Virus record (IMG/VR): IMGVR_UViG_3300024521_000001
Coordinates: 44,391 to 108,390 of that record
Strand: one strand, 5' to 3'
DNA: 64,000 nucleotides
From: a virus
Taxonomy: Duplodnaviria > Caudoviricetes
Of the stretch, positions 43,483 to 61,694 are shown piece after piece; the first letter of the stretch is position 1; every line of letters starts with the position of its first letter. Both the position numbers and the translations under genes were made by a program. The notes under the pieces are model-generated. The model ran no database searches, had not been told where the DNA came from, and was given only the letters and a program-made list of their open reading frames with translations.

Positions 43483-43600
43483 TGGTTCTCCTTTTGGGGG
43501 TTAAGTGGCCGCTTCGGGGTGTGTCGATGTAAACACTCGTTGGGCTTTCTGACTGGAGGAGAGAAGGTCACAACGAAATGAAGCGGCCACATTCATAATA

Positions 43601-44074: not shown

Positions 44075-44373
44075 TACAGGTCCAGGTGTCTCAATACAGT
44101 TTCGTTCTGCACAAGGATCACGCGCAGCTTTTGAACGACGGTGACCAACTGAACGGCCAGGGGGCTTTTACCGTGTACTTGTGTCGGCACAGGGGACAGT
44201 TCCTCTTTCTTTTCGATGGTAGGATTTCTCTCTCTGCTCACACCCTGGAGCCTCGTCTTGAAGGACTCAGATTGCTTCTCCAAGAGGTTGGCTGACTCAT
44301 CGAGTTCCTTTACGCAAGTCTCGATAGAACTGACTTCTACTGCTCCTGCTATGTCTGATTCACTCAATCCCAT
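44074..44373 (-). CDS. hypothetical coiled-coil protein
   Basis: Start MGLSES preceded by AAGGAG. Confidence 0.6.
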   Translation of the reverse strand: MGLSESDIAGAVEVSSIETCVKELDESANLLEKQSESFKTRLQGVSRERNPTIEKKEELSPVPTQVHGKSPLAVQLVTVVQKLRVILVQNETVLRHLDL

Positions 44374-44548
44374 ATCCACTCCTTTGAACGGTTTTGGCGT
44401 TATTCGGGGAGCCGCCGAACTCTCACCCCCGACGACTCCCCTACCTGTGAAGTCCCGGACACACGGCCTGCGTGAACAAGAACCGTGGACAGACTCCACC
44501 AGGGATACTAGCACAGACGGGTGTGTATGTCGTTAAAAGAATTTAAGA

Positions 44549-44625
44549 GGGGGATCATACGGGAATCGAACCCGTGTCACCTGATTGAGCGTCAGGTATC
44601 TTTGCCAGTTAGACCAGGACCCCCC
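44549..44625 (-). tRNA. degenerate tRNA-Glu(CUC)-like element
   Basis: D arm GTCT/AGAT, anticodon arm CCTGA-CGCTCAA-TCAGG, T arm ACGGG-TTCGATT-CCCGT; G at position 33, irregular acceptor junction, no CCA. Confidence 0.7.
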
Positions 44626-44633
44626 ATGAAAAT

Positions 44634-44701
44634 AGTTGTCAATAAACCGACTCGAAGTTGTCAATAAACCGACTTCAAGTTGTCAATTATAATTGACAGC
44701 T
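44634..44701. repeat. 22-bp-period direct repeats ending in a palindrome
   Basis: AGTTGTCAAT at 44634, 44656 and 44678; the first two extend to AGTTGTCAATAAACCGACT; the last forms TGTCAATTA-TAATTGACA. Confidence 0.85.
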
Positions 44702-45188
44702 AGGGCGTTGTTCTCAAACCACTGACAAACTTCCCAACGACCTCATCCACCTGGGGCCCATTCTCTCGAATGATGAAAGTGAGCGTAGTGGTTGTCCTCG
44801 GTTTACCCGGAACATCGGGTAGCGGTTCCAGCCAGATCAGCTCAAGTTCATCCGAGAACGCGCTTTCACCCCCGCTGCCATTCAAAGCTGTGATCCGATA
44901 GAAAGTGCTTTGCTCGAACACGACCGGACCTGGATCAGTCCAGGTGATGCAATCGGGTGTGCAGACGGTGAGCGGAGTATGAGGAACCGTCGCTACCTGG
45001 GTGAAGGCCACGCAGTTTGCTGGACTCGGATTCGGGTCCGTGCATGAGGTAGAGGAACTGTACGCTCCATACGTTACCGTCACCCCATCTGTATTCGCGT
45101 CCCAAAAGAGCGGTGCGGGGAAAGTGATTTGGTCCGCTTGCCCCAACGCTGGACAGATAAAGAAAAGCAGAAGGAATAGCTTTCTCAT
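44700..45188 (-). CDS. secreted fibronectin-III-like protein
   Basis: Signal peptide; LFWD...YGAY...FYRITALNGSGGESAFSDE. Confidence 0.75.
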   Translation of the reverse strand: MRKLFLLLFFICPALGQADQITFPAPLFWDANTDGVTVTYGAYSSSTSCTDPNPSPANCVAFTQVATVPHTPLTVCTPDCITWTDPGPVVFEQSTFYRITALNGSGGESAFSDELELIWLEPLPDVPGKPRTTTTLTFIIRENGPQVDEVVGKFVSGLRTTP

Positions 45189-45427
45189 ACGGTCCCTCCT
45201 GGGCCACCTGGACGAGTCTGCGTACCACCGGTGGTCGGTGTCGTCCGCTTCTCAATTTCCGACTTGATCACTTGAACCAGGCCCACAATGGCAGCACCAG
45301 CCGTACCGATGCCGAGCCAGAGCTCAGGGGATAGAAAGATCCCCGCAGCCGTGAGTATGGTTGCCAAACCCTGGTAAGTGCTTGGCTCCTTGAGCCTCGC
45401 TGCAATCCATTTCAGTAATCCTTCCAT
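45185..45427 (-). CDS. holin-like membrane protein
   Basis: RLKEPSTYQGL followed by two transmembrane segments. Confidence 0.7.
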   Translation of the reverse strand: MEGLLKWIAARLKEPSTYQGLATILTAAGIFLSPELWLGIGTAGAAIVGLVQVIKSEIEKRTTPTTGGTQTRPGGPGGTV

Positions 45428-45448
45428 GATTTACCTCCTTTTTGGTGG

Positions 45449-46468
45449 TTAATCTTTGTCTTCCTCTATTTTCCCTAGATCGTCAAGGTGTTTCTCGAAA
45501 TCTGCCGCCGCTTTCTCGATGTGCTTGTCTATTTTTTCCCTCATTCCTTCAAGGACTCCCAATTTCTCAAGGGGAACTGAGGTCCGCTGCTTCACCCAGA
45601 GGTTCGTCGCAAAAGTTCTGTCCCGGATCCGGACCAGGATCTTTTCGGAGACCTCCGCGATCTGTCCATTTAAATCCCCTCCAAGCAGCGTCAGGCACAA
45701 CCCCATGTTCGATGCAGCCCACTGTGCACACTCTGAGGGAAGCACGTCGGCCCTCATCCATTGGTGCAAGACGCAGATGGCCCGATCCTTGGCCTCCAGG
45801 TCCTGCGCCACGCCATCCAGGACCTTCAGGGATTCTTCCATGTGGGGAGTCTGGTCTTTGATCGCCTTGGCGGTCTTATCGGCCTTCTCTTTACCTCCTC
45901 CAGTGGCTCCGTGCCAGACCTGTTCGGCAATGTTCGTCACGATCTCCACATCTGTTTTATATTTGTCGTTGGCCGTGTAGCAGACCACGCCGGCCAGCAG
46001 CCAGGCCAAGAAATCAGTGGCCGAATCGTAATCTTCCTTGTAGAGCCGGTTGGTGATGAAGAACAGCTGGATTCCGTACCTCTCCGTCTTCCACTCCCGG
46101 TGCAGCGTCATGAACCTTTCCATGGATTCAATTCCCAACTGAAGCGACTTGGGCTCCGCGCACAGGATCACGCACCGGTCCCCTATCATTCGCTGAAGGA
46201 GGTCTTCCGCAATCGGACCCCCCCCGGCCGTACTCATGATCGAGGCCAGGGCCTTCGTGGATATGTCTTTTTTCGGAAGGGCGATCACTGGCGGTAGGCC
46301 TGTTACACGGTAGGACTTGGGCGGGTGAAGCATCAATTTGGATAATGCGCCTATGATCGCTGTGACAGGTAGGAAATCAATGATCAGAAGGAGCCAATGG
46401 TCCTTTGCATCCAGGAGCGCGAACATCTCATCCAGGTCGTCGCTTGGAAGGAGGTCTTTCAGGTTCAT
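45449..46468 (-). CDS. hypothetical protein
   Basis: 339 aa; no motif recognised. Confidence 0.7.
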   Translation of the reverse strand: MNLKDLLPSDDLDEMFALLDAKDHWLLLIIDFLPVTAIIGALSKLMLHPPKSYRVTGLPPVIALPKKDISTKALASIMSTAGGGPIAEDLLQRMIGDRCVILCAEPKSLQLGIESMERFMTLHREWKTERYGIQLFFITNRLYKEDYDSATDFLAWLLAGVVCYTANDKYKTDVEIVTNIAEQVWHGATGGGKEKADKTAKAIKDQTPHMEESLKVLDGVAQDLEAKDRAICVLHQWMRADVLPSECAQWAASNMGLCLTLLGGDLNGQIAEVSEKILVRIRDRTFATNLWVKQRTSVPLEKLGVLEGMREKIDKHIEKAAADFEKHLDDLGKIEEDKD

Positions 46469-47112: not shown

Positions 47113-47336
47113 CCTACCTCTTTCTTCGTCTGTTCAACCTCGATCTTGTCTATCGCGGTCTCGATCCAGCGCAGAGTGAGTTTGTTCGCTCGAGCGACTC
47201 TTTTGTTGGCATACCGGAAGAGAGTCGTGTGGGATGGGCCTTCCTCGCCGTTGACGCGGTGCATTTCCCGGCACATCCTCTCCCAACTCCATTTGGTCCT
47301 TTTCTGTAGTCTGAGTAGCCTTCTCGTGATTTTCAT
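47109..47336 (-). CDS. Cro-like HTH regulator
   Basis: WSWERMCREM...PSHTTLFRYANK. Confidence 0.65.
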   Translation of the reverse strand: MKITRRLLRLQKRTKWSWERMCREMHRVNGEEGPSHTTLFRYANKRVARANKLTLRWIETAIDKIEVEQTKKEVG

Positions 47337-47361
47337 TCCCTATCCCTCTCAGCTAAGCGGT

Positions 47362-49145
47362 CTAACATTCCCCTCTCCCCTTCGACTCAATCTGAATCCG
47401 GATCACTTCTACAGCGCACTTGGAGCAAGCGACGACAAGATACTCATTGCCGTACTCAAAGCTGACGGATAGCCCTTCGTAGTCGTGGCAGCGGGCATGA
47501 AGGAACAGAGGGCCAGCGTGTTTGTGATCGCAGCCAGGGGATTGACAGCCCTGGGCAGCGGCGTTCTCCAGATCTTCCAAATAAGCGACTTTCACCCGTG
47601 TATTCCCATTTTTACCAACCAGGGAAAGCCAGCTTTTACCCATATTTGCCAGCTTTCCCCGCACAAACACCCATTTTTACCCATATATGCCAACAATCCG
47701 CCGATTATCACAATAAAGTGATATTCCCCTAGAACGGCGGGTCCGGTTCATCCGGTTCCTCCTCGTCGACAGCTGGCCCCCCCTCGTAAACGACAATCCC
47801 TTCATCCAGGCTGTCGGCTATCCGCTCCAGCTGCAGGATCTGTTCCACCATCAACTGAGTGAAAGAGTCTGGGCCATCCTTGTCTACCAAGAGAGTCAAT
47901 CGTTCTTTCAATTCCATAGCTTCCTCCGGTTTAATTTTTGAACGCCTGACAAACTCATCAACATACCGTTGAATGCCGAGCTTCATGGGTCGATCACTTC
48001 GAGCTTGTCCGGATCCCCCGTCATTGGGCGACCCCACCCGTCATAGTAACCTTCCTTGGTGAAAAAATACTCCGTCCCGTTGGCGCATTTGATCTTGTCC
48101 AGGTGCTTCCCCTCCGTCACTTCCACTGGCAACTCCAGCCGAATTTTCTTGCACTTCCCATCCTCATAGACCACCACCAGGAACATTTCAAATATCCCCA
48201 ATCCGCATTTTAATATCCGATTTCGGTGTTTTAATATCAGGTGAAGGACACCAAATCCCCGCGCCCGAGAGAACCAGCAGAAGGAACCACAAGAGCAGAG
48301 TGATGTTGATTCTCATTGCTTCTTGACTTTGGTTTCCATCGTGAACACTGGAACTGGCGTCCCATCCCACATCACAAAATACCCGTACCGACAGCCCAGG
48401 ACCGGATCATCCAGCGGTCCCATGCTCCCCACGATCTTTCCTCGCTGGCCATCAGGGTGACCGTCTTTCGGTTGAGAGTTTTGCTTCTCTACCAGCGTCC
48501 CGTTCGGCATGGCCCCCTCTGCTTCCTCGTTCGAAAATACGAAGCTCATTCGTGCGGTCCTGTCGGGTTCTCCCTCTGCTCGTTGGCCCACTTCAGAAAT
48601 GCGACCATTTCGCATTCCGAAGGAATCCCCCCGGTGTGTTCGATCCAGTCTGCCAGCAATTCATCCAGCATCCGGTGTAGATACTTGTGTCGCTTTTTGT
48701 GGGATTCCAGATCTGTGACAGGTAAGTATTCGTGTTCCATCCCTATCCCAATGTTTCCGCTCTAACATTCCCTGAGTAGGTCCCTCACTGAATCGCCCCG
48801 GCCCCGCCCACATTGAGGGGTATGGTTGGGGTTTAACCCGCGCGAGGCCCAGGGCGAACTTAAATCATCTGCGCTGCGTATGCTAACAATCCCCAATCAA
48901 GAAACGTACTTCAGTTCCTCGAACTGCTCGAAGATCGCCCTCGCTATCTTCTCAGGCAGCTTCGATCCGTTGTCCAAAGTGAATTTCTCATCATGCGAGA
49001 TCGACTGGCCCTGCACCGCTGCACAGTAAGCCGACCACGCTCCCTCGATCCGCGTCCGCGCTACCACCATCACGTTCGGTCCCAAGCTGTACCTCGCTAT
49101 CACTGGCTTAAATTCGGAGCCTGTAACTTCACTCGTTTCAACCAT
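47362..49145 (-). other. cluster of small hypothetical genes (47362-47670, 47729-47986, 47983-48201, 48313-48549, 48546-48740, 48897-49145)
   Basis: Co-oriented and mostly overlapping short ORFs. Confidence 0.55.
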
Positions 49146-49565
49146 TCTTTCACTCCTTTCAGTTCCTCTCTCGTGCTAACATTTCCCCGGAAGCCTACTG
49201 CCTAACATTCCCCGCATGACAAACAACTAACATTCCCTTGATTAAATAACCGCCCTGGCCGATCCTTTCGGAACACCCCATTGTCAAAGACCAAGGAGCG
49301 ATCCACGACCAGGGCGAAAAAGAGATGTTCTTATGACTCGCGCAGTTTCCCTTTCAGGCTCGGAGTCAAGCACACACCCCAGGAAGCGCAGAAAGAGGAT
49401 AACACGTCCAGGTGTGTATGTGTAGGTCAAAGCGGAGAGAAAAAAAATAAAATTACTGATACGCGGTTACAGGGTAAGCATAGAGCATGGAGTTAGGGAC
49501 TCCTGCTCCGCTGGAGGATTCCGAGGATTCGGACCCCTTCCTTACTCCCTTCCTTCCTTCTTTCT

Positions 49566-49636
49566 TCGGTCTGGTCTGGTCGGCCTGGTCTGGGTGGTGG
49601 TGGTCTGGTCTGGCTGGTCTGGTCTGGTGGACTGGC
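49566..49636. repeat. GGTCT/CTGG/GGT low-complexity tract in the divergent intergenic region
   Basis: cggtctggtctggtcggcctggtctgggtggtggtggtctggtctggctggtctggtctggtggactgg, preceded by a polypyrimidine tract. Confidence 0.8.
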
Positions 49637-49915
49637 CGATGGTGAGCCGCCGACAAATATGCTCCCCGCGTCACCGGCCAGTCCGTTTCGTTTGAGCGTG
49701 AACCATCCTATACTATCCCCTTGCCTACTTCGAGTAAACGCTGTCACGGCCATCCTCGTCGCATCTATTCGTGAGATCGGTGTCCCGTAGACTCCTGACT
49801 ACGGGACAGGCCAATTCGAGGATTTGACCGCTGGTTCCACTGGCTTGTGGCCTGCACATTCTCAAGGGTTTGCGGGACACCATCGAGCGAAATCGAGCGG
49901 CCAGTCATTTGGACG

Positions 49916-49945
49916 TTGACCATGGTCATACGATCATGGTAATAT
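49916..49945 (+). promoter_or_regulatory. sigma70-like early promoter overlapping an inverted repeat
   Basis: TTGACC-N18-TAATAT with a TG extension; imperfect palindrome ACCATGGTC-ATAC-GATCATGGT; a 20-mer recurs at 54337. Confidence 0.75.
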
Positions 49946-49969
49946 GAATATAAGAAAGGATAGGGAAAT

Positions 49970-50152
49970 ATGAGAACACCAAAAGACCAGCAAGTTTCAA
50001 CACTCCACACCGAGCGAATCACCAAGGCAATCAAAGCCGAGCCAGTCACTGAGGAGGAGATTGATATCTTCGCTCAGTATGCTCCGCACCAAGTCGAGAG
50101 CCACTGGGATGCTATCGCCAATCACATCTACACCATGGGTTTAGGGGAATAG
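49970..50152 (+). CDS. first early gene, hypothetical
   Basis: GGATAGGGAA leader, directly after the promoter. Confidence 0.65.
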   Translation: MRTPKDQQVSTLHTERITKAIKAEPVTEEEIDIFAQYAPHQVESHWDAIANHIYTMGLGE

Positions 50153-50229
50153 TTCCCCCCCCCTGGTTCGTGTTTTCCTCTACCTGGACACGGACCCGGC
50201 TGCAAGGTAGGGAGAAGGATAGGGAATCC

Positions 50230-50493
50230 ATGTTTGACGAAAGCCTAGACAAAGAAATCGCAACCAAGGAAGTCTACTCCGTGGGTGGGGTCAGATTGAC
50301 GGTCGGGATTTACCAGTACAACGGAAGCACACCCAAGGTCCAGATCAAAAGAGAACGCAACACCAAGAACGGTTCTTGGAAGTTTGCCAAGCTGGGCAGA
50401 CTGACAGCCGACGAGGTGAGACAGGTCACCACTGGCTTACAGTGGGCAGCCGAAACGCTGGACACAATGGACGGAGAAGGGAGCCAAGTATGA
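50230..50493 (+). CDS. PC4-like single-stranded nucleic-acid-binding protein (tentative)
   Basis: Start MFDESLD; LTVGIYQYNG.PKVQIKR...W.FAKLGRLT. Confidence 0.5.
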   Translation: MFDESLDKEIATKEVYSVGGVRLTVGIYQYNGSTPKVQIKRERNTKNGSWKFAKLGRLTADEVRQVTTGLQWAAETLDTMDGEGSQV

Positions 50494-50783
50494 AAAACCA
50501 GTACGCAGTTACACCGGCACAAATGAGGGAGAAGTTAGCTCCCATGTATCGGGATGCAATGGCAGTTCAGGACGCGTGTAATCTTTCGGGAGTCGTTTCC
50601 TCGTTTGCTCGTCACATGCACACGCTATGCGAAATGGGATTCGATACGGACCAGAGGAACCGGCATCCGGTTAGCATTCTCTTCTCCAGCAAGATCGCCA
50701 GTCTGACAGGGAGCGAGTCACTGACTGCATTCTCCGAAGCGTACGAACGTGCAACGGAAGTAAATGAAGGGAGCCAAGTATGA
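50490..50783 (+). CDS. hypothetical protein
   Basis: Start MKNQYAV; AMAVQDACNLSGVVSSF...NRHP. Confidence 0.7.
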   Translation: MKNQYAVTPAQMREKLAPMYRDAMAVQDACNLSGVVSSFARHMHTLCEMGFDTDQRNRHPVSILFSSKIASLTGSESLTAFSEAYERATEVNEGSQV

Positions 50784-51019
50784 AAGCACCAGCAATCCAG
50801 TTTGCCAAGATCCCCAACAATATCATCGGTCATTTGTTCCTTTGGGTTTTACGTCGATGGTTAAACAGTGACCGCTACTCACTCGTGACCAGAGGAAGAA
50901 AACCCAGACGTGTTATCCGCTACTCCTATGACGTGCCAAAGGCGAACGCGCAACAGTTGGGAATCTACATCGTTGACCGATGGGAGAACAAGATGAGGAT
51001 GGAAGGGAGCCGAGTATGA
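50780..51019 (+). CDS. hypothetical protein
   Basis: ATGA-coupled on both sides. Confidence 0.6.
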   Translation: MKAPAIQFAKIPNNIIGHLFLWVLRRWLNSDRYSLVTRGRKPRRVIRYSYDVPKANAQQLGIYIVDRWENKMRMEGSRV

Positions 51020-51441
51020 TCCAAGCGAATTTTGTGAACGATCAACACATCACACCAGACGACAGGGACCACGATATTCTGACCGCTCGTGTCTACCAGT
51101 GGGACAAAAGAGAAGGCGCAAGGGTAGGGGATTATATCGAGTTTGCCGATGGTGTCACACACCGATTCTCACACGATTGGGGTAAGGAGGAGGGGATGGG
51201 AATCCAGACCAGTCCCATCGGAGGTAGCTTCTACTTCGGTGACGGTTACCTGAGTTATTCGGGTGGACTGGAGCCTTGCATCCAACACGATCAACTGGAA
51301 GACACCGGAGAGCAGCGGTTAGGATCGGTCTGGTTCTTCCATCGTGATTACCACACGGCCCACAATGGAATCAATGCGGTGATCCCTTGCAGAGTGTTCA
51401 AGACTTCGGCCAATAGCGACCACTGGAAGGGAGGAGAATGA
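51016..51441 (+). CDS. DUF4121-like mobile-element protein
   Basis: RVGDY...RFSHDWG...IQT...GSFY...YSGGL...WFFH. Confidence 0.65.
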   Translation: MIQANFVNDQHITPDDRDHDILTARVYQWDKREGARVGDYIEFADGVTHRFSHDWGKEEGMGIQTSPIGGSFYFGDGYLSYSGGLEPCIQHDQLEDTGEQRLGSVWFFHRDYHTAHNGINAVIPCRVFKTSANSDHWKGGE

Positions 51442-51791
51442 TGCACGTTATCCACCTACCAGCTAGTACCAAAACGGTGAGTGTCGGTCACTACGTCCAA
51501 GCCTGGAAGGATTGCAAGGCTGCACCAGTTGGCACGGCCTACAGTCACGGCCTATGTGGATGGTCACCGACAACACGCGAGAGAATACTGCGCGAGTTTG
51601 AGGAAGGGATGCACGATAGGATCAACAGGAAGATCGAAGGCTATGGAGTCGGCAGGAAATGGGACAGCGATTACCAGAGGGACATGGGACACGCTGCCAG
51701 GGCTGTGAATACTGCGCGTCTGATTGTTCGGTATGTCCCCATGGATCTTCGCAAACGGTTAGCACATCGGCTCTATAAGGAGGAAGAATAA
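51438..51791 (+). CDS. hypothetical protein
   Basis: GGGAGG SD; FEEGMHDRINR. Confidence 0.65.
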   Translation: MMHVIHLPASTKTVSVGHYVQAWKDCKAAPVGTAYSHGLCGWSPTTRERILREFEEGMHDRINRKIEGYGVGRKWDSDYQRDMGHAARAVNTARLIVRYVPMDLRKRLAHRLYKEEE

Positions 51792-51794
51792 CCA

Positions 51795-51855
51795 TAGCGT
51801 GGCAACACCGCTTCGTGACTCCGTCGCGGGGGGGTGTGGCTGCACTAAAGCAGTC
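51795..51855 (+). ncRNA. structured intergenic motif, copy 1
   Basis: Long hairpin plus an overlapping 3' hairpin; similar elements at 52920 and 53217. Confidence 0.7.
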
Positions 51856-51869
51856 AGGAAGGGGATAGG

Positions 51870-52067
51870 ATGAGACAATTAAGCAAACGCGAACAACGTC
51901 AACGTCAGGCTTGGATGAGTCGGTTCGATACTCTGATGACCGAGCGAAAACCAGAGACAGCGGGAAGGCAGGATTGGGACACCGCTCTGTTTTACTACCT
52001 CCAAGGTGTGACACCGCTAGAGGCAGTCGAGTTTATATGCCAACCAAAACCGGAAGGGATCGAATAA
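51870..52067 (+). CDS. hypothetical protein
   Basis: 65 aa with GGATAGG leader. Confidence 0.6.
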   Translation: MRQLSKREQRQRQAWMSRFDTLMTERKPETAGRQDWDTALFYYLQGVTPLEAVEFICQPKPEGIE

Positions 52068-52900
52068 TGACACCGATAGTCGAAGTGAAGCTATGGAAGT
52101 ATGACGCGATCATGGTCAACACGTCAGGCGGGAAGGATAGCCAGACCGCGTTGAGGGCTGTTGTCCAGTTGGCAAAGCGTCAAGGCTATCCCTTGTCACG
52201 CATCGAGGCAGCACACGCGGATCTTGATAAGGTCGAGTGGGAAGGCTGTCCAGAATTAGCCCGAGAACAAGCAGAGCATTATGGCGTGAGGTTTAGCGTG
52301 GTCAGGCGAAGAACCAAAGACGGTGATGAGAGTACGAATCTTCTGGACTACGTCAGACAGCGAGGAATGTGGCCTAGCAACACGGCACGATACTGCACCA
52401 GTGACTTTAAGAGAACGCCATGCAGCCGAGTGTTGACCGCGCTGGACAGGAAAGTACGCAGGGACAGGAGACACCACACCAAGATCCTGAACGTCTTTGG
52501 GTTCAGAGCGGAGGAATCACCAGCACGGAAGAAGAAGCCAGTCTTTGAGAGGAACAAGACCGCGAGTACCAAGAGCCGCACGGTTTACAACTGGCTACCG
52601 ATTCACAACTGGACGGAGGTCGAAGTCTGGGCAGATATCAAGGCTTCGGGAGTACGACACCATCGAGCGTATGACATTGGAATGCCGAGGCTGTCTTGTT
52701 GCTTTTGCATCTTCGCGCCAAAGGCTGCCTTGGTGATCGCGGGGAAGGATAAGCCAGAGCTACTCCAAGAGTACGTCGATGTGGAAAGGGAGATCGGTCA
52801 CACGTTCAGGGTTAACCTGTCACTGGCCGAAGTTCAAAGAGCAGTACAGGAAGATGAGCAGCCAGACTTAGTCGCGCTAGACGGAGCCTGGAACATGTAG
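52067..52900 (+). CDS. PAPS-reductase-family (PP-loop) protein
   Basis: Start MTPIVEV; SGGKDS PP-loop, RYCTSDFK, GFRAEESPAR and RLSCCFC. Confidence 0.9.
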   Translation: MTPIVEVKLWKYDAIMVNTSGGKDSQTALRAVVQLAKRQGYPLSRIEAAHADLDKVEWEGCPELAREQAEHYGVRFSVVRRRTKDGDESTNLLDYVRQRGMWPSNTARYCTSDFKRTPCSRVLTALDRKVRRDRRHHTKILNVFGFRAEESPARKKKPVFERNKTASTKSRTVYNWLPIHNWTEVEVWADIKASGVRHHRAYDIGMPRLSCCFCIFAPKAALVIAGKDKPELLQEYVDVEREIGHTFRVNLSLAEVQRAVQEDEQPDLVALDGAWNM

Positions 52901-52919
52901 GGAGGAGGATAACAATGTA

Positions 52920-52980
52920 TCCGTGACGCAATAACGCTCCGTGACTTGTCGCGGGGCGTGGTGGCTGCACGGAGTAGCCA
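52920..52980 (+). ncRNA. structured intergenic motif, copy 2
   Basis: TCCGTG/CACGGA pairing replaces TAGCG/CACTA of copy 1. Confidence 0.7.
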
Positions 52981-53015
52981 AATGGCGGTAGACCGCCGGA
53001 AAGGATAGGGAAACC

Positions 53016-53219
53016 ATGGGAACATCAACACAGCTTCCCACACTGGACCAAGCGAGGATGGACACCGGCCAACTGGCCGAGGCTGTCTTGTTTCGTCCGG
53101 GTCAAGGCCAGGGAGTACCGTTTTATCGCGGTTACTGGTGTCACGAGTGTGGCTCCAACTTCAGGCCAGCAATCAAGGCGCAGCGAGTCTGCGTGTGTTG
53201 TGCAAGGACCGAAGTCTAG
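53016..53219 (+). CDS. small Zn-finger protein
   Basis: CHEC...CVCC. Confidence 0.55.
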   Translation: MGTSTQLPTLDQARMDTGQLAEAVLFRPGQGQGVPFYRGYWCHECGSNFRPAIKAQRVCVCCARTEV

Positions 53220-53281
53220 CATGGCAGAACCGCTCCCCGCGACTTCGTCGCGGGGGGTGTGTCGGCTGTACTATCAGTCGG
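53217..53281 (+). ncRNA. structured intergenic motif, copy 3
   Basis: CCCCGCGAC-TTC-GTCGCGGGG core with the same flanking stems. Confidence 0.7.
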
Positions 53282-53299
53282 GAAAGAAAGGATAGGGAA

Positions 53300-53626
53300 A
53301 TGATTCACTACCAAAGAAAGTACCAAGTAAAGAAGTACCTCACCGTTGACGAGTTGACGGAGGCTCTGATTGAACGCACATGGACGGTGTCCAGTGGCTT
53401 CGAGTTGGAGGGTCTACTGTTTTTCAATGACGCGTTCAGTGAAGACGGAGCGCAGGAGTACGCAGTCTACCGCGACGGCCAGCAGATCGAGAGCATTACA
53501 TTCAGTTGGTGCAACTACGACAGAGCCAAGGAGATCATCTTGGAACTGGTCGAAGGTACGCTCGATACTGCTGATATGTTTACCGGCAGGATTCAACCAC
53601 AGTTCACCATAGTGGGGAGCCTGTAA
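53300..53626 (+). CDS. hypothetical protein
   Basis: Start MIHYQRK; FNDAFSEDGAQEYAV...QIESITFSW. Confidence 0.7.
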   Translation: MIHYQRKYQVKKYLTVDELTEALIERTWTVSSGFELEGLLFFNDAFSEDGAQEYAVYRDGQQIESITFSWCNYDRAKEIILELVEGTLDTADMFTGRIQPQFTIVGSL

Positions 53627-54090
53627 TGACGAAGGGGAAAGCCTACTCAATCAAGGAAGTGTTTCTCACCGTCAGGGATAAGCCAGTGGTTCCCGTCGTC
53701 TTGGGGAAGTTCAAGGCAAAGGTGGTCAATAGTCAGGAAGTCTTTAGAGCATTTGTCTCCCTGAATGAGCGGGACGTTGAGCAGTTCATAGCTCTCCACC
53801 TGGATACGGGTAACTCTGTACGCTCGATTCATGTGGTGTCCAGTGGCATTGTCAATGCTGCCTTGGTTCATTGTCGGGAAGTATTCCGCGCGGCAATCGT
53901 CAACGGAGCCACTAAGATCATCGTGCTACACAATCACCCGAGCGGATCCCCATCACCGAGCGAAGAAGACGTGAGCATCACGGAGAAGCTCGTAAAGGCG
54001 GGAAAGATCATCGGTATCCCTGTGCTGGATCACATCATAGTGGGTGGTTCAACCTACTACAGTTTTGCTGACAAAGGGAGGATGGGATAG
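53626..54090 (+). CDS. radC: RadC-like JAB-domain protein
   Basis: REVFRAAI...HNHPSGSPSPSEED...LDHIIVG. Confidence 0.95.
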   Translation: MTKGKAYSIKEVFLTVRDKPVVPVVLGKFKAKVVNSQEVFRAFVSLNERDVEQFIALHLDTGNSVRSIHVVSSGIVNAALVHCREVFRAAIVNGATKIIVLHNHPSGSPSPSEEDVSITEKLVKAGKIIGIPVLDHIIVGGSTYYSFADKGRMG

Positions 54091-54644
54091 TGGCATACAA
54101 CAAGAAGAAAGCCTACAAGCTGAGTGACGCGGAGAAACAGATGGCAAGCGGGTATGTTGGATGCCCTATCAAGCGAACGCGGATTCAGGTCGCGTTATGC
54201 GGAAAGATGCAAGCCGAGTGCCGAAAGAAGTGTGAGCAGATGAACATGGGGAATGGTTGCCAACACCTTGATTACACCGAGGCAACGGACGCATGGACCG
54301 AGTATCAACGAGCGAAACAGGGCTAAAAGTGTGTGTATGGTCATACGATCATGGTACACTAACAGAAAAGGAGGATAGGGAATATGCCGAAGGCTACGTT
54401 TGAGATCCAAAAGCAACCCAAACCCACAAAGGAAATGCCCTGGACGTTTTCGATTCTGGAGGAGAACGACGAGGGTGACCCCAACCCTGACACATGGGTG
54501 GTCGCCAAAGATGAGGGTGAGTACATTCACGGTATCTGCACCGAGAGGGGCTTGGAACATGCCCACGATTGGGCCATGTGGAACTACGGTTACACCGGCT
54601 TCCGAGCGCACCTTCCGGGGGAGCCTTGGGAGCCAGTATTTTGA
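54090..54644 (+). other. two small hypothetical genes (54090-54326 and 54384-54644)
   Basis: A Cys-rich ORF, and an ORF preceded by the promoter-like repeat and GGATAGGGAA. Confidence 0.6.
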
Positions 54645-54660
54645 AAGGAGGTAAGCAATA

Positions 54661-54733
54661 GCGAAAAGGCCAGGGGTAACCTTGGTCTTTGCTCCGTGAG
54701 TCAACCTAGTCGGAGCCTGACGAGCATGGTTGA
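54661..54733 (+). ncRNA. type II hammerhead ribozyme with pseudoknot
   Basis: GC-GAAA-[stem III AGGCCAGGG/GUAA/CCUUGGUCU]-UU-[stem I GCUCCG/CGGAGC]-CUGACGA-GC; loop I UCAACC pairs with 3' GGUUGA. Confidence 0.85.
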
Positions 54734-54754
54734 GGAAAAAAAGGAGGATAGGAA

Positions 54755-55459
54755 ATGGGTAAAGCAAAGGCCGTAACAGCGGAAGCATTGTTCAATGCTC
54801 CCGAGATCCAAACCGCACCGAAGCCGAAGAAGGGCAAAAGCACAAACAGACTGGTGGTTCCCTTCATTGACTTCGACCTTGTCGCTGCACTTGGCATAGT
54901 TGAGAAGGCGATCAAGTCTGTATCGGTGCAGATGAAAGACGCGATCAAGGAACTGGCTACGGATGAGTTCGTAACGCAGATCCTTGCGACAGGGACCAAG
55001 CCTGACAGCTTCACCGCGAGGGGTGACCATGCTACGGGTCTGGTAAGTCTGCGTAAACGTGGAAGCAACACCAGACTGGACGAGGAAACCGCGCTCAAGC
55101 TGATCGAGAAGGGCATCCATGTTGACGAGATCGAAGCAGTACCGGAGCGTTTGGTTATCAACCCTGAAATTCTGAAGGACCAGAAGATCATCGGAGCGGT
55201 AGCCGAAGCAATCCAGAACCACCCGAAGCTGAAAGGCGTGACGGTGGTAATGAAGCAGACCGCCGAGAAGCACTACGCGGTGAGTGAGCAGACGCTCCCA
55301 CAGTTGGCACACGCAGCAGAGAAGGAAGACGAGTTGCGTGAAGTGTTGGGCAAGCTGGCCGTGATAAGTGTTGGCCGGTTCGTGCTGGAAGACTGCAAGG
55401 ACAGCGGAGAGCAGAAAAAGAAGGCTCTCAAGATTCTGTTTGACGCGGAGATCCTGTAA
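54755..55459 (+). CDS. hypothetical protein
   Basis: 234 aa with AGGAGG SD. Confidence 0.75.
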   Translation: MGKAKAVTAEALFNAPEIQTAPKPKKGKSTNRLVVPFIDFDLVAALGIVEKAIKSVSVQMKDAIKELATDEFVTQILATGTKPDSFTARGDHATGLVSLRKRGSNTRLDEETALKLIEKGIHVDEIEAVPERLVINPEILKDQKIIGAVAEAIQNHPKLKGVTVVMKQTAEKHYAVSEQTLPQLAHAAEKEDELREVLGKLAVISVGRFVLEDCKDSGEQKKKALKILFDAEIL

Positions 55460-55462
55460 GGC

Positions 55463-56089
55463 ATGAGCTTCAGCGAGTGGCGGTATCTATTCCCCCCCCG
55501 GCCAGAGTCGGCGGTGACGTGCGACTTGATACGCATGTATCAACGGCGGGGGTGGGTTGGTCAGTTCAAGAAGAACGGGACCTGTGCTGTTATTGGCATC
55601 GGTCCCGAGCAGACCTTCCAGTGGTTCAACAGACACCAAGACACGCTGAAGTGGGAGCCTCCACCAGACACGGTCCAGTTGCTTTGGGAAATGTTCGGAA
55701 GCAAGGCATGGACCGTGTTGATAGGGGAGTTAATCCATTCCAAGGTGAAGGACATTAGGAACCGGCTGTACCTCTTTGATTACGTTGTGTTGGAGGGTCA
55801 CTACGCCCTTGGTTCGACGTTTACGGAGCGTCAGAGCGTGTTGTATGAGCGGGTTGAGCCGTTTATTGCAGCCGAATCGAAGTCACACTACTTGGCTTCG
55901 CGGAATGTCTGGTTAGCCAGGACGATCAAGAAGGAACTTACGAGCGTGTTTCATGCGATCACCAGTCCAGAGGACGAAGGGCTAGTGTTGAAAGATCCAT
56001 GGGGCAAGCTGCGCGATTGCGAGCGGGAGAATACCAACGGCCATTGGCAAGTGAAGGTAAGACACCCGAGAACCAACTTTGCATTTTAG
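55463..56089 (+). CDS. minimal ATP-dependent ligase/nucleotidyltransferase-domain protein
   Basis: Motif I QFKKNG, III LIGEL, IIIa YLFD, IV EGLVLK and V WQVKVR; no OB domain. Confidence 0.8.
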   Translation: MSFSEWRYLFPPRPESAVTCDLIRMYQRRGWVGQFKKNGTCAVIGIGPEQTFQWFNRHQDTLKWEPPPDTVQLLWEMFGSKAWTVLIGELIHSKVKDIRNRLYLFDYVVLEGHYALGSTFTERQSVLYERVEPFIAAESKSHYLASRNVWLARTIKKELTSVFHAITSPEDEGLVLKDPWGKLRDCERENTNGHWQVKVRHPRTNFAF

Positions 56090-56100
56090 GAGGATAGGGA

Positions 56101-59100
56101 ATGATTTTAGAACCAGATGAAAAGAGTGTGCTAGAGGACTTGCGACACGACACAGCGTTGCAGGATATGGCACGTTTCGCGGGTGAGGAAGGAAGCGAGT
56201 ACGTTGACCATTGGGTGAGCTACTACGCTTGCCAGTACACCGACGCAATCGGCATCAAAGATGCCAGGGTGTACGAGATCCTGAACGCGATCTTGGCCGA
56301 CGATTACTTTGAGTTTGAGGGAGAGGACCCAGAGCCAGCAGCCTGGGATAATCCCAACAACACCTTTGAGGAGAACAAGCGCGAGTATCTGTTGAGCTAC
56401 GGACCTGACACCTACTTTGAAGCAGGATTGGAGGACTGATGAAGGTTCACGTTGTAATGATTCACCACAAACACGGAATCAACCTATCGGCTCACGACAC
56501 GGCCAAGGGAGCAGAGGAAGAAGTGGGCCGGTATGTTGCCGACGAATGGAGTGCGGAGATCGAACCCAAGGAGCCGTACCCCGAAGACAATCAAGTGGAA
56601 GCCTACTTTGAGAAAGTGGAGTCGGAGTATTACGAGATCGAGGAATTAACCATCCAAGCGGAGGGGCAATGAAACACAGACTTGAGTTTTACGAGTGCGA
56701 ACACAGCGGTGACGAGCAAGGGTATGTCGATAACCTCAACGATCATCCTATGATCCAGACCGTCACGGTAGTCCAACGGCCTTACAACATGGAGTACGGC
56801 GAGGAAGTCGTGATTATCGAGGTCGAATCAGACCTGACTCACAATGAAATCCACGACATAGGGTGGGGGGTTGAAGACGAACCGCCGTACGCGCACCAGT
56901 CACCAGGGATAGTCCGAGAAGATATGGCCGACAAACTAGGAAAGGAGAAAGAGTAATGCCTTACATTTATGAATGGGTAGAGCCTGACTTGTTCTTGGAA
57001 CACAAGGGAGTGGAGGTCTACCACAGCTACAGAAACGACGACTACGGTAACGGACCTTGGGAGTATTGGTTTCAGGTCCAGTTGACTGACGACACCGAGG
57101 GAACCACAGAAGACGATATGCGCGAGTTTGACGTGCGGGACCTGGATGCCTGGAAGGTTATTTCCCGGCGTTGCCGTGTCGAGCCAAAGGAAGCTATTCG
57201 GAAAGCCTTAGACAAAGGCGGGAGACAGGAGCTTCTGAAACCCGTACCAAACCGTTGCCGATTTTGCAGGGAAATCCCTGAAGATTGCGAGTGTGCAGCA
57301 GGAAGGATGGCGAAATGAAAGAACACTTTGAGTGCGACAACTGCGCCAAGCAGTTCACCGAGGACCAGTGCAACGAGGCCAAGGATATTCTCATGCGTAT
57401 GGAGCGCGGGAGTATCTTCACGGACCTGGAGTGTCCAGAGTGCGGAGCCTTGTGCTATTCGGTTGGAGAGAAGGCCGAGCCAGACGAGCCAATGACAGCG
57501 AAGCGGTGGGATTCAATGACACCAGTAGAGCGCGAGGACTTCGTTGACGAATCAGGACTGGACGAAAGGTTCACGCGCTACTACCTGTCAGGGGAGCGCG
57601 TCGAAGTCACCGAAGAAGACGGAAACAAGAAGCGATTCTATGTGGGGAAGTCTACGGGTTGGAAGCCGATCTACCTGGAGATACTCCGCAGGGATTCAAG
57701 CGGAGGCGCGGGGATCCTCTCCAGTTGGGTTACCAGTATCAGGGGGGTTGGGGTCTACGACGACAGGAGGCGAAGACTATGATGAGGCAATCGCTAATCA
57801 CCCAAGGCAAAATCTCCAAGCTGCAAACGGCCTTGTCCAGAAAGATGGAAGGCAACGGAGAGGACATTGATACGGAGATCCTTGAGGCCATGAGGGAGCT
57901 ACACCGATACATTCAGTTGGTGGAACACAAGCTGGATGAAGTAGAGGTCCAAGCGAACCGGCGACGATTTTATTAACCAGAAAGGAGGACGAATGAAAGA
58001 CCTGTATTTGATCTACGTCAGGCAGTCTGACGACAACCGAAGGGGTTTTGCTGGTGAGGTTCGGGCCAACTCCAAGCAAGAAGCGTTCCTGAAGGCCAGG
58101 GATGATCTTGGGGTGACCGCTCCAACGAAGCAAGTGGACGTTGTGCGGGGAGTCCCGCAGGTCGAACACCAGCTTGACGACAATTTTGCCAGGACGAAAG
58201 AAGAACTGGTTGTGCGGGGACTTCTTGAGACAGAGCTATACCAATGGGACGACGACAGCCTTGATACGTTGGTTCACGAGTTGGCATTGACGCAGATATC
58301 AGAAATCAACACCAGAGGGAAGGTAGCGCAGGTTGAGTACGTCATAAGAAGACTGCGCGGGACACGGACAGAGGTCGAGATTCTCAAGATGAGAAGGGAG
58401 GCATCGTGAGCGAATTGCAAGTTTTCGTGTGGGCTGCGCTCATACAGTTCGTTGTCCTCGTTGAAGTGGCGGTGATTGTCAGTGTGGCGAGATTCGCCTG
58501 GATAGGAGGGTTCAATGACTTTTGAAGGAATGTTTGAACAGGCCAAAGAGCGGTTACTGCCTCATCTTGGTCACAACATCGAGATAGGAAATTACGGGAC
58601 CGAGAAGTTCCCAATAAACATCGCCATCGAGTGTATGGATTGCAATGAGGTTTTGATCGACTTCACCGATGAGCCAAAGAAAGGCGACGAGGCTGCCCAA
58701 GATCCGCAGCGGCCAACGGAGTCTGAGGTACGACTGCTTGCCTATGCGTACACAGACAGTTCTTTGGTCGCAGAAGACTCTGAGGATCGTGAACAAGCGA
58801 TTGAAGATGAGGTCCAAGGGCCGGGGGGTGGACTGGAACAGGTGCAATCGGCCTATATCGCGGTGTTTCGGAACTACATCACTGGTGGGCCAGGATACAT
58901 GGGAGCGGTCTACGCGATTGTTTGGGACGGTGCGCCAGAGTTCGTGTCGGTTGCCTATTGGGAGAAGGAGCCGAAGCGACTCAAGATGATTCACTACGGC
59001 GACGTGTGAGAACAGGATAGGGGGAAGAAAGGATGGGGAATGAACAACGTAGGTAAATGGGTATCGGTAAACGGTTCGATTGAACTGCCTTATGAAAGCG

Positions 59101-59545
59101 ACTTCGTGTTGGTGAAGGCTGCGTTCATAGGGGAAGACGGTTGCACGGTCAAGAGTCTAGGAGGACGGTACTACTTCGTGAGAAAGGGCCGCTTCGCAGA
59201 CTTCCCAGGTCCAAAGTTCGTGATTGACGCAACGAAGGATACGTTTCTTAAAAAGGGGGGACTATGAAGCACAACGTCCACTTTTATGTGACGGTCAGGG
59301 TTGTGGTTGAGGACGTGGAAGCTGACTCGCAGCGGGAAGCTATTGACGAGGCTGAAAAGATCCTACTGCCCAAGCTCAATCACGGAATGTTGGACAATTA
59401 TTCTGGTCACCCAACGGAGTACGCCGACGAGGTCATCGGCTATCTGGTGGACGAGCAAGGCGACGAGGAGTATCTCCAGACCAGGGCTTATGACCAGAAC
59501 AAAAACCCAGGGAAACTATCGCCCACAACCGGGCAACCGATATGA
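56101..59545 (+). other. array of small, mostly acidic hypothetical genes (56101-56439, 56439-56672, 56669-56956, 56956-57318, 57315-57782, 57779-57976, 57993-58409, 58515-59009, 59040-59267, 59264-59545)
   Basis: Tightly coupled ORFs with SD sequences; several are D/E-rich or carry CxxC pairs. Confidence 0.7.
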
Positions 59546-60294
59546 CACCGCGCGGGGGCAAGAGAAAGTATTTCTGGACCGAGGAGCAGGACGAGTTCAT
59601 GCGCCAGCACTACAACGGAAAGGTTGCAGGTCGAGCAGCCTGGATTGCCAAGGAGTTTGACGACTGGTATCCAGTTTGGCAAATCAAGAAACGTGCTGGA
59701 GTGTTGGGCCTGACAGTAGCAGCAGACCGGCGCAACTGGACGGAGGTTGAGGAGAAGTTCCTCCGTGATTACCTATGCTCTGCCAGTGCGCAGTACATAG
59801 CCAAGAAGCTCAAACGCAGCCTTGCTGCGGTCATGCTCAAGGCCAAGCGGGAGAAGATTCGGCGCGTAGCGATCAGGGAAGGCTACACCTTGCACCTATT
59901 GGAGCAATGCTTCGGGATGGATCACAGAGTTATCCAGCGTTGGATGAAGGAGAAGAAGCTCAAAGGGAAACGGCGCGGAGAGAACGGAGATCGAAGCACT
60001 TGGCATTTCACCGAGCGGGACGTGCTGGAGTTCGTGATTGCCTATCCGTTGGAGTTTCGGTTGGACAAGGTCAATCAGGCTTGGTTCATGGACTTGCTTA
60101 CTGGAGGCCGGGAGAACGCGGAGCGGTCAACGGTCTGTGTCATGTGTGAAAGATGGCCGGGGGATGATCCTTATGTGCATCACAGGCCGACAGGCGACAA
60201 CGAGGCCATGGAGATCTGGATTTACTGTCGAGGGTGCAGCGTTGTACCGAAGAAAATGGCGAAGAAGGAGGAACAGAATGGGTTTAACGATTGA
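59542..60294 (+). CDS. multi-HTH DNA-binding protein
   Basis: Repeated WTEEQDEF / WTEVEEKF...IAKKLKRS units plus a MerR-like HTH. Confidence 0.75.
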   Translation: MTPRGGKRKYFWTEEQDEFMRQHYNGKVAGRAAWIAKEFDDWYPVWQIKKRAGVLGLTVAADRRNWTEVEEKFLRDYLCSASAQYIAKKLKRSLAAVMLKAKREKIRRVAIREGYTLHLLEQCFGMDHRVIQRWMKEKKLKGKRRGENGDRSTWHFTERDVLEFVIAYPLEFRLDKVNQAWFMDLLTGGRENAERSTVCVMCERWPGDDPYVHHRPTGDNEAMEIWIYCRGCSVVPKKMAKKEEQNGFND

Positions 60295-60496
60295 AGAAAA
60301 GGTCCCTGAAACCGTCAGTGGTGAGTGTCCGTTCTGCAAATGCGACGACATACAGGGAGACTCGTTTGACGTTGAAGGGAACCACGTCTACCAGAGAATG
60401 TTTTGCCTTGGGTGTGAATCATCATGGGACGACGAGTACAGGTTGGTGCGCCAAGCGAACACGGACGGGCGCACGATCACAAAGGAGGACAAATGA
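60278..60496 (+). CDS. zinc-ribbon protein
   Basis: CPFC...CLGC..W.DEY. Confidence 0.7.
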   Translation: MGLTIEEKVPETVSGECPFCKCDDIQGDSFDVEGNHVYQRMFCLGCESSWDDEYRLVRQANTDGRTITKEDK

Positions 60497-60779
60497 AACA
60501 GATAACAGTGGATGAGATCAAAGAGGAGATCCGCTTTCAGATCAAAGCATTGGAAGCGAACGTCAACCTGGAATTACCCCAAACCGTATACGCTCGGCTC
60601 TTGGAGTGGATTGAACTGAAACGCTAGGAGGTTGATTGGAACTGTTTTTGTTTATCACTGGACTCTCACTGGCTGTGTGTACCGATGGTGGACCAGAGTG
60701 GGTGAGGAAACTGGCATTGCATGGATGGGTGGTCGCATGGCTGCTGCACGTCTATTGCTGTGCATGAGAAAGGACCGGA

Positions 60780-61385
60780 ATGCCACTGGATAGCCTGAAG
60801 TCGGCCAAGGAACTGGCGAAGAACAAGCCTCACGGTACGAGGATGAAGTATCTAGGCGGGTGTCGTTGTCTGCCTTGCAGGGGAGCCTACTCGCAGTACG
60901 AAACGGATCGGCAGCGGGAGATCCGTGAGAGTGGACGAAGTACAGGTTGGGTTTCTGCTTCCAAAGCCAGAGAACACCTGATCGGGCTGTCAAAGAATGG
61001 TGTCGGCAGAAGATCCGTGCATCATGCCAGTGGAGTGGCTGACTCGATTTTGCACGAAATCAAAATGGGTAGGCGCAAGCGGATCTTTGCGAAGACGGAA
61101 CATCGGATTCTACAGGTTGACGAAACAGCCAAGGGTGCAGCGGGGATCGTACCAGCTGGACCGACGTGGGAACTTATCAACGAATTACTCGAAGAAGGCT
61201 TTACCAAGTCGTACTTGGCGAAGCGTCTAGGGCGCAAGGTTCCTGCACTTCAGGTACACAAGGAGAGGGTAACGGTAAAGACCGCAGTCGCAATCGAGCG
61301 GCTGTACGGCGACATTATGAGGAACGGGAGATCGGAAGGGCCAGAGGCCAGACAGATACGGAAGAATTACCATGACCGACGTTAG
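60780..61385 (+). CDS. HTH DNA-binding protein with GCRC..C motif
   Basis: HGT...Y..GCRCLPC; AREHL..L...GVGRRSV. Confidence 0.75.
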   Translation: MPLDSLKSAKELAKNKPHGTRMKYLGGCRCLPCRGAYSQYETDRQREIRESGRSTGWVSASKAREHLIGLSKNGVGRRSVHHASGVADSILHEIKMGRRKRIFAKTEHRILQVDETAKGAAGIVPAGPTWELINELLEEGFTKSYLAKRLGRKVPALQVHKERVTVKTAVAIERLYGDIMRNGRSEGPEARQIRKNYHDRR

Positions 61386-61514
61386 ACAAAAGAAAGGAGG
61401 GCCATTGGATGAACGAAAGAAAATGACCAGGACAGACGTTTTTGAACGAATCGTGCTGCTAGGCCTGTCGGTAGCGGCAGCGGTAGCACTCAACGGTTGC
61501 TGAAAGGAGGACAA

Positions 61515-61694
61515 ATGAAACAGCCAATCAAGATCACGGTCGAGAAATCGGTACTGATTGCAGCGAGACAGAAGGCCATGGGGAAGGAGACTGTAATCAG
61601 CAACATCATTGAGGGGTTCTTGTCCCTGTGGATTGCGGGGAAGCTCGCGGATCCGGAGGAGTTGATGAGGGAAGTGGAGGAGGCCCAGGTATGA
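61515..61694 (+). CDS. small RHH-like regulator
   Basis: IKITVEKSVL..AR.KA...ISNIIEGFL. Confidence 0.6.
   Translation: MKQPIKITVEKSVLIAARQKAMGKETVISNIIEGFLSLWIAGKLADPEELMREVEEAQV

Follow-up and report, generated by a model that had tools for sequence, protein, structure and literature searches.

The early precursor RNA of bacteriophage T7, ~7000 nt long, carries five RNase III signals, which are described as several sequence-related irregular hairpins of about two turns lying between the cistrons of the early message (PMC3867540). According to the passages of that work cited here, the ideal substrate of E. coli RNase III measures about 22 bp, and internal loops or mismatches in the stem restrict cutting to one strand and can in this way leave a stabilizing 3′ hairpin on the upstream product (PMC3867540). 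Here we describe an intercistronic RNA element of ~64 nt, present in three copies, that resembles these signals in the irregularity of its stem and, if the copies share one transcript, in arrangement. It lies in the early region of an uncultivated phage represented by the 108,390-bp IMG/VR virus record IMGVR_UViG_3300024521_000001 (53% G+C), of which bases 44391-108390 were analyzed; this stretch of 64,000 nucleotides is called the window, and coordinates are given in it unless another contig is named. Unlike the T7 signals, the phage element has an alternative 3′ hairpin of nearly equal energy, an invariant apex and a stop codon embedded in its stem, and its cleavage would be proposed by analogy. 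To our knowledge, none of these three features has been described for the T7 sites.

Three other kinds of repeated element invite comparison. In Cluster K mycobacteriophages, the start-associated sequence (SAS) places a GGATAGG motif a few nucleotides ahead of some non-structural gene starts, and some of these motifs are preceded by an imperfect inverted repeat, the extended SAS (ESAS), as the cited portions of these reports have it (PMC3203893; PMC12699233). The motif that follows our copies, RGGATAGGGAA, has no more than the GGATAGG core in common with the Cluster K SAS: the 13-mer GGGATAGGAGCCC has 22 matches at up to 3 mismatches against 20.5 expected, none of them at the starts considered here, and under the SAS definition tested (at most 2 mismatches, 3-9 nt ahead of the start codon) no such start carries it. 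The ESAS is reported to have 17-bp arms, a 4-14 bp spacer and SigA-like -35/-10 hexamers, with variation that, in what is cited of these sources, does not support RNA pairing (PMC3203893; PMC11373665), whereas the phage element has arms of 25-27 positions, a loop of 2-4 nt, no promoter hexamers and variation that does support it; Cluster K phages are, moreover, unrelated to this marine-sediment phage of 108 kb and 53% G+C. The promoter early stem-loops (PeSLs) of T4-type phages are likewise repeated stem-loop cassettes between small non-essential early genes, in regions in which related phages differ by gene insertions and deletions, but they are described as a strong sigma-70 promoter joined to an effective terminator (PMC2839356), and the phage element has neither promoter nor U-tract, nor is any insertion or deletion observed here bounded by two copies. 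Finally, the repetitive extragenic palindromic (REP) elements of enterobacteria are imperfect palindromes between cistrons or after stops that are reported to hinder exonucleases (PMC12320835), but REPs are host repeats present in hundreds of copies, while the phage element occurs three times, is longer and has a conserved competing helix.

A three-copy structured RNA beginning at 51795, 52920 and 53217 had been proposed by a first-pass annotation of the window, and all three copies were recovered both by a pattern search, in which three of three matches fell on the + strand, and by a covariance model (R1) built from the nine distinct sequences of the family in four related contigs. R1 placed the copies at 51793-51857, 52919-52981 and 53215-53281 of the + strand, with scores of 80.5, 72.6 and 68.6 bits (E 4e-15 to 2e-12), and detected no other copy in the 108,390-bp genome, where its scores elsewhere were at most 23 bits and the next best match was the antisense of the same sites. 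Each copy contains a long irregular hairpin (51795-51847, 52920-52973 and 53217-53273, respectively) made of a lower stem of ~10 positions, an A.G mismatch, an upper stem of ~15 positions and a loop of 2-4 nt, 3 nt in copy 1. The upper stem ends in an invariant CGYGAC/GTCGCG helix backed by a C/U-run against a G-run. In total, 25-27 positions are stacked, or roughly two and a half helical turns, and a copy has 16-19 Watson-Crick pairs and 3-5 G.U pairs; the A.G mismatch is kept in all nine sequences and a C.A mismatch in seven of them. The central hairpin (CGYGAC-loop-GTCGCGGGG) and the outer stem, in which copies 1 and 3 have the C.A mismatch, agree with the first-pass description, and so does a competing 3′ hairpin, for which every copy uses the 3′ strand of its lower stem a second time: TGGCTGC/GCAGTCA at 51837-51856, TGGCTGC/GTAGCCA at 52962-52980 and TCGGCTG/CAGTCGG at 53262-53281 (all +).

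On the + strand the three copies fold more stably than their dinucleotide shuffles (z = -2.85, -3.81 and -4.02 for copies 1 to 3), and the - strand folds worse (z = -0.97, -1.93 and -2.73). In the alignment of the nine sequences, the 25 pairs of the long hairpin leave 85.3% of cells paired, as compared with 31-55% when the partner strand is slid by 1-3 columns, and seven of these pairs are altered on both sides. Cells with such double-sided changes numbered 18, against 7.1 ± 2.3 in shuffled alignments, and none of 500 shuffles reached 18. RNAalifold, run unaided, returned the same long helix with 21 pairs, five of them compensatory. For the 3′ hairpin, 98.3% of cells are paired over seven pairs (13-63% when slid), and one pair, between columns 50 and 69, is altered on both sides. 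Both helices therefore keep pairing through base changes in nine sequences, which upholds the covariation originally claimed.

Column 50 is of particular interest, as its partner is column 14 in the long hairpin but column 69 in the 3′ hairpin. The three columns vary jointly, reading A/U/A in copies 1 and 2 and G/C/G in copy 3. Such a joint change would be expected of two mutually exclusive helices that are selected together; a single event is probably behind it. When either helix was enforced, the two states lay 0.1-3.6 kcal/mol apart in all nine sequences, and when the first 14 nt were blocked, the 3′ hairpin was predicted to form in each of the three copies. Predicted accessibility of the ribosome-binding site (RBS) across this switch went from 0.77 to 0.55, from 0.57 to 0.62 and from 0.59 to 0.58, and, in view of the lack of a consistent change, sequestration of the RBS by either state was dropped as a candidate. 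The loop of the 3′ hairpin had also been noted to be complementary to the 5′ end of the element; this complementarity is real, but it amounts to the pairing of the outer stem itself, so that the pseudoknot suggested on its account is not needed. Cumulatively, our findings support the view that the element is a structured sense-strand RNA with real covariation and two competing helices.

The element was found in four related phage contigs, with three copies in the same order in each (12 sites, 68.6-81.3 bits). Besides the present phage, these are L007 and L011, whose DNA is 92-93% identical to it, and the more divergent L009. In comparison with L007 and L011, the elements are 93.9-100% identical and the neighboring coding flanks 86-99%, and the 19-nt non-element spacer directly ahead of copy 2 (52901-52919) is 79% identical. 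The sole stem change among these genomes is the matched loss of C 53235 and G 53252, which leaves the helix one pair shorter; since it would shift the frame over 17 nt, this loss argues against a coding role. Further variants came from contigs of three more metagenomes and of run X20, which is only guessed to be RNA. Among the variants listed, those in loops are 51820 T>C and a G after 52947 (apical loops) and an AC after 53272 and 53274 T>C (3′ hairpin), and those in stems are 51813 T>C, which turns a U.G into a C-G pair, and loss of G 53252, as in the paired deletion; the 100 nt of coding sequence upstream of copy 1 hold at least about 20 differences among the same variants. The overall pattern of conservation is that of an element under selection, and the comparison of listed variants is supportive. 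The X20 contigs abut the elements, but those of two DNA runs (X5 and X6) end at almost identical positions, and contig ends are thus uninformative on RNA ends.

Outside these four contigs, R1 found nothing beyond 23 bits in 334 kb of related and unrelated viral loci. Two pattern scans of IMG/VR DNA gave six loci each, three of which were L007, L009 and L011 and the rest single matches that are not members: the three others of the first scan (L006, L008 and L010) lie in coding DNA and were judged by eye, and those of the second (L128-L130), run through R1, reached at best 17 bits. A pattern scan of prokaryotic genome contigs gave at least 120 loci; 80 of these, with a single match apiece, were run through R1 with a best score of 21.1 bits and no member of the family. 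Neighboring proteins led no further. For the 108-aa protein encoded after copy 3, which has 70 homologue proteins, 94 loci were searched (14 viral and the best 80 of 333 metagenome relatives), and the element was present in three only, the known contigs. The loci of the PAPS (3′-phosphoadenosine 5′-phosphosulfate)-reductase-like protein (2), of a 234-aa protein (4) and of the large terminase (22) gave no new copy; the sole new contig from the 234-aa search, L257, carries just 409 nt upstream of the gene, which puts the elements out of its reach. Against cultured phages, blastn returned no match for the 2.3-kb region or for copy 2, and for copy 3 only a 30-nt match (E = 0.8). The distribution is thus very narrow, four contigs of one uncultivated clade, and the metagenomes in which the sequence occurs are from seawater and marine sediment.

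No described RNA family accounts for the element. Rfam 15, which includes hammerhead, twister, pistol, hatchet, HDV-like and CRISPR-repeat families, returned only tRNA in the whole window at gathering score, and only tRNA and two chance matches at E ≤ 5. At E ≤ 10, two chance matches were obtained in 49000-57000, one of them on the opposite strand over copy 3 (Mnt IRES, 13.8 bits against a gathering score of 100), and two in 51780-53310, both outside the elements. In line with the first-pass attempt, in which hammerhead, twister, pistol, hatchet and HDV cores did not fit, none of these searches matched the element to a described family above chance level.

The copies are placed with great regularity. 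Each lies on the gene strand between a stop codon and the next RBS, as annotated, in the order stop codon, element, A-rich spacer and RGGATAGGGAA motif 0-5 nt ahead of an ATG. At all 12 sites a reading frame ends no more than 4 nt before the lower stem or within its first 7 nt. Copy 1 is preceded at 3 nt by the TAA of a 117-aa gene (51438-51791, +), with which its own TAG is in frame; a TAA stands 0-3 nt ahead of copy 1 in three of the genomes, and in L009 the TAG of copy 1 is itself the stop. In copy 3 the first three bases of the hairpin, TAG, are the stop of the upstream 67-aa gene in four of four genomes. Stop-codon read-through across this copy was considered and rejected: the frame is open in the window, and in L009 a TGA closes it. 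In copy 2, the lower stem contains a TGA, which in L009 terminates the homologue of the 65-aa gene. In the three genomes that have the PAPS-reductase-like gene inserted (52067-52900, +, ending 19 nt upstream of copy 2), the same TGA ends a three-codon mini open reading frame (mini-ORF), ATG TAT CCG TGA (Met-Tyr-Pro-stop; 52915-52926, +), with its own GGAGG in a strong Shine-Dalgarno sequence, GGAGGAGG. This mini-ORF is kept in L007, in L011 and in a metagenome variant without the PAPS-reductase gene.

Downstream of the copies, the ribosome-binding motif reads GGATAGG with the ATG (51870) of a 65-aa gene at 51863-51872, and AGGATAGGGAA both with the ATG (53016) of a 67-aa zinc-ribbon-like gene at 53002-53018 and with the ATG (53300) of the 108-aa gene at 53289-53302 (all +). 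At up to one mismatch, RGGATAGGGAA has 13 sites in the window against 2.4 expected, all on the local coding strand and mostly ahead of genes that come after an untranslated spacer; they include 49957-49967, 50216-50226, 53002-53012, 53289-53299, 54372-54382, 54745-54755 and 56091-56101 on the + strand and 25934-25944, 35752-35762, 47336-47346 and 48739-48749 on the - strand. Its 5′ half, AAGGA, stands at normal Shine-Dalgarno spacing, and the TAGGGAA after it is conserved as well. Neither a sigma-70-like promoter nor a hairpin-plus-T-run terminator was found at 51790-51870, 52915-53015 or 53210-53300, and the hairpins are followed by GGUGUGG, GCGUGGU and GGUGUGU, that is, by no U-tract that would make an intrinsic terminator. 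Ahead of the copies, the + strand has a single promoter-like site, TTGACC-18-TAATAT at 49916-49945, which is for this reason the likely transcript start for all three. Since no promoter- or terminator-like site occurs between 49945 and 54038, we infer that they share a single transcript.

Of the three functions initially offered for the element (an RNase III-type processing site, an antitermination or switch element, and a new self-cleaving class), an RNase III-type site or a switch fits the anatomy best. By analogy with T7, we tentatively favor, at somewhat less than an even chance, a processing and stability site of the RNase III type whose 3′ strand refolds after cleavage into a 5′-terminal hairpin. 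The three copies are probably cis-acting RNA structures in a polycistronic early message, whose likely start is the promoter-like site at 49916-49945. A double-strand-specific endonuclease, host RNase III or a similar enzyme, would cut the lower stem, and the upstream message would then end in the stable, G+C-rich upper hairpin, shielded from 3′ exonucleases. The freed 3′ strand, GGCTGYAC (GGCUGYAC in RNA), would re-pair with the downstream tail to give the alternative hairpin, which would form the 5′ end of the downstream message, before the unstructured A-rich spacer and the strong ribosome-binding motif. A 5′-terminal hairpin at this position may protect the new end and permit fresh initiation. 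Such a cut-and-refold proposal accounts for both helices as well as for the extra conservation of the strand that they share.

Several points weigh against this proposal. RNase III needs no fixed sequence, and the 13-bp apical helix is nearly invariant across the three paralogues. This near-invariance is the main fact that processing by RNase III leaves unexplained, and it fits a sequence-specific partner or a recent duplication at least as well. Covariation rests on little diversity: the nine distinct sequences come from a single phage clade and fall into three lineages of paralogues, and a "compensatory" change probably happened just once in any given lineage. The argument for the sense strand from non-Watson-Crick cells (37 G.U against 10 A.C) is suggestive only, because the excess counted per alignment column, 7 against 3, is not significant (p = 0.17). 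Predicted RBS accessibility does not change consistently between the states, so that no output of the two-state switch is evident. Pfam revealed no ribonuclease or RNA-binding domain in 30 early-region proteins, none of the listed runs in which the sequence occurs is on record as RNA, and the choice of host RNase III or a similar enzyme for the cut is a guess.

The same stop codons that mark the foot of each hairpin raise the possibility, unlikely in our estimate, of a ribosome-driven two-state switch or hand-over that couples upstream translation to re-initiation or gates nuclease access. As the upstream stop lies in or beside the 5′ strand of the lower stem, a terminating ribosome would have to open the stem, and the 3′ strand would flip to its other partner. 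This would agree with the reading frame ending at the hairpin foot in 12 of 12 sites, with the near-equal energies of the two states and with formation of the 3′ hairpin in every copy once the first 14 nt are blocked. Spacing may point the same way: the ribosome-binding motif lies 23-28 effective nt past the hairpin base, and an extra 5-bp hairpin present only in copy 2 (GGCGG-TAGA-CCGCC; 52984-52997, +) brings the single-stranded distance to the start to ~28 nt, next to 23 and 27 nt in copies 1 and 3. However, compact phage genomes often have stop codons that run into the following feature, predicted RBS accessibility is not consistently altered, and the mini-ORF is perhaps a leftover of cassette insertion, the same junction being found in the variant that lacks the PAPS-reductase gene. 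One specific form of the idea, which we would not expect to hold, is a ribosome-actuated two-state RNA in which each termination at the built-in stop, or at the mini-ORF stop after gene insertion, melts the stem and flips the shared 3′ strand; this would either hand the ribosome across the hairpin base to the ribosome-binding motif, as a bacterial counterpart of short-ORF-plus-hairpin shunting, or time nuclease access to translation. We know of no bacterial precedent for hairpin-bridged re-initiation.

The invariance of the apex leads to another candidate, in our judgment improbable: an operator for a sequence-specific RNA-binding protein, for instance a translational repressor, a nut/put-type antitermination factor or an endoribonuclease that recognizes the hairpin. 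The apical helix and G-run (alignment columns 18-46) hardly differ between the paralogues, in contrast to their diverged lower stems; the two-hairpin state resembles two adjacent stem-loops, and the small protein encoded directly downstream of copy 1 has an N-terminus rich in Arg and Gln. On the other hand, the apical loops vary freely (TCC, TTC, CCC, TT, TTG, CA and TTT), unlike those of operators that are read in the loop, and three copies in 1.5 kb of one operon would be odd for antitermination. In addition, none of the 30 neighboring proteins could be placed in an RNA-binding or nuclease family, and the 65-aa protein has no family; no trans-acting factor emerged from Pfam (30 early-region proteins), PHROGs (10) or Atlas (the 65-aa protein).

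Action at the DNA level, as an inverted-repeat operator, a recombination site or a PeSL-like junction for cassette shuffling, appears quite improbable. The apex is indeed a near-perfect palindrome, relatives differ in their genes directly on the 5′ side of copies 1 and 2 (by the PAPS cassette and by one additional gene in L009), a serine recombinase (a resolvase with a helix-turn-helix domain; 61628-62275, +) is encoded ~8 kb downstream, and the ESAS repeats of Cluster K are now taken, in the part cited, as promoter plus operator (PMC11373665). On the other hand, departures from Watson-Crick pairing are mostly G.T on the sense strand, by the cell counts given above, a competing helix that lies outside the palindrome is still conserved and covarying, and both promoter hexamers and indels bounded by two copies are wanting. 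We also considered an integron attC site, a retron and a CRISPR-repeat mimic, and rejected them, as no core motifs were seen by eye and no CRISPR repeat was found by Rfam; the 30 early-region proteins scanned contained no reverse transcriptase or integron integrase.

The copies could also be generic REP-like intercistronic palindromes, without a specific partner, that block 3′ exonucleases, perhaps slow termination of the upstream frame and have spread by duplication. Strong G+C-rich hairpins directly after stops, between cistrons, would suit such a role, and Liang, Rudd and Deutscher reportedly found in 2015 that REPs within about 15 nt of a stop codon affect upstream translation. Structured REP-bearing mRNAs are described, in the portion cited, as obstructing exonucleases (PMC12320835). 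Yet the conserved competing 3′ hairpin, the conserved mismatches and the invariance of the apical sequence would all be left unexplained, and we consider this account very doubtful as well. The remaining proposal, a new self-cleaving ribozyme class, is almost certainly wrong: the element is a multi-copy structured intergenic phage RNA without a known family, but it is a simple hairpin with no multi-helix junction, conservation lies in the G+C-rich helices and not in junctions or in the loops, which vary between copies and strains, a pattern opposite to that of known ribozyme cores, the only invariant unpaired feature is the A.G mismatch, and no ribozyme family matched at E ≤ 10 in the 1.5-kb search. 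The hammerhead supposed to lie nearby was not found by Rfam, whether the whole window was searched at E ≤ 5 or the stretch 49000-57000 at E ≤ 10, which leaves the ribozyme-rich context unsupported. The sequence at 54690-54745, which holds CTGACGAG and GAAA, is perhaps what had been taken for a hammerhead; it has no Rfam hammerhead match at E ≤ 10 and no stem II by eye.

Almost all genes of the window are on the - strand, including those for the large terminase (31932-33878), the portal (28092-29990) and the major head protein (24794-25762), and the terminase shares no more than 28% identity with its counterpart in any cultured phage. The three copies belong to a + strand block of ~14 kb at the right end (~49950-63300), which, besides the PAPS-reductase-like protein and the serine recombinase, encodes a RadC-like JAB protein (53626-54090, +) and a weak ligase-like match (55463-56089, +); it also contains small genes without assigned function. 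Between the - and + blocks, the divergent region at 49568-49627 contains a tandem repeat of GGTCTGG type, with two 26-nt copies that are 88% identical. Elsewhere on the - strand, a giant ORF of 3710 aa occupies window positions 1-1275 and continues into G000 34533-45665, and the only tRNA of the window is a tRNA-Glu (anticodon CTC) at 44549-44622. An exact 20-nt repeat is found at 49922-49941, in the promoter-like spacer, and at 54337-54356, each followed by a ribosome-binding motif. This site looks like an early promoter with an operator and, as such, like a closer analogue of the Cluster K ESAS than the three-copy hairpin. A stereotyped junction, GAAGGGAGCCAAGTATGA, occurs four times with 75-100% identity (50476-50495, 50766-50785, 51002-51021 and 52053-52072); its ATG overlaps the upstream TGA, making it a repeated translational-coupling junction between small early genes.

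Gene content around the copies is variable. L009 and one contig of run X6, the latter joined from 52066 to 52904, lack the PAPS-reductase-like gene. L009 also lacks the RadC-like gene and has an extra 65-aa gene (5411-5608 of that contig) that ends in the TAG of copy 1. The 65-aa protein encoded after copy 1 (51870-52067; 5681-5866 in L009) has an Arg/Gln-rich N-terminus and no family in Pfam, PHROGs or Atlas; it is a possible nucleic-acid binder. The order of zinc-ribbon gene and 108-aa gene, followed in the window by the RadC-like gene, is module-like (53016-54090 and loci L015-L105), and many of the 333 metagenome relatives of the 108-aa family have a small Cys-rich gene ahead. We take these neighbors to resemble anti-restriction regions.

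The element described here is a real, selected RNA motif that was previously undescribed. An intercistronic hairpin in a phage early operon is familiar; the two-state design and the embedded stop codon are what is unusual about it. The impact is limited by the very small size of the family, four contigs of one phage clade. If the cut-and-refold proposal is true, the element would be a compact natural "insulator" in which one hairpin marks the cut, caps the upstream piece and re-forms as a downstream cap beside a strong RBS, and such parts would be useful in operon design. The stem-embedded stop and the near-equal fold energies make a link between translation and RNA refolding accessible to simple reporter tests. 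For phage biology, the same proposal would extend T7-style message processing to an unrelated, uncultivated lineage of marine-sediment phages.

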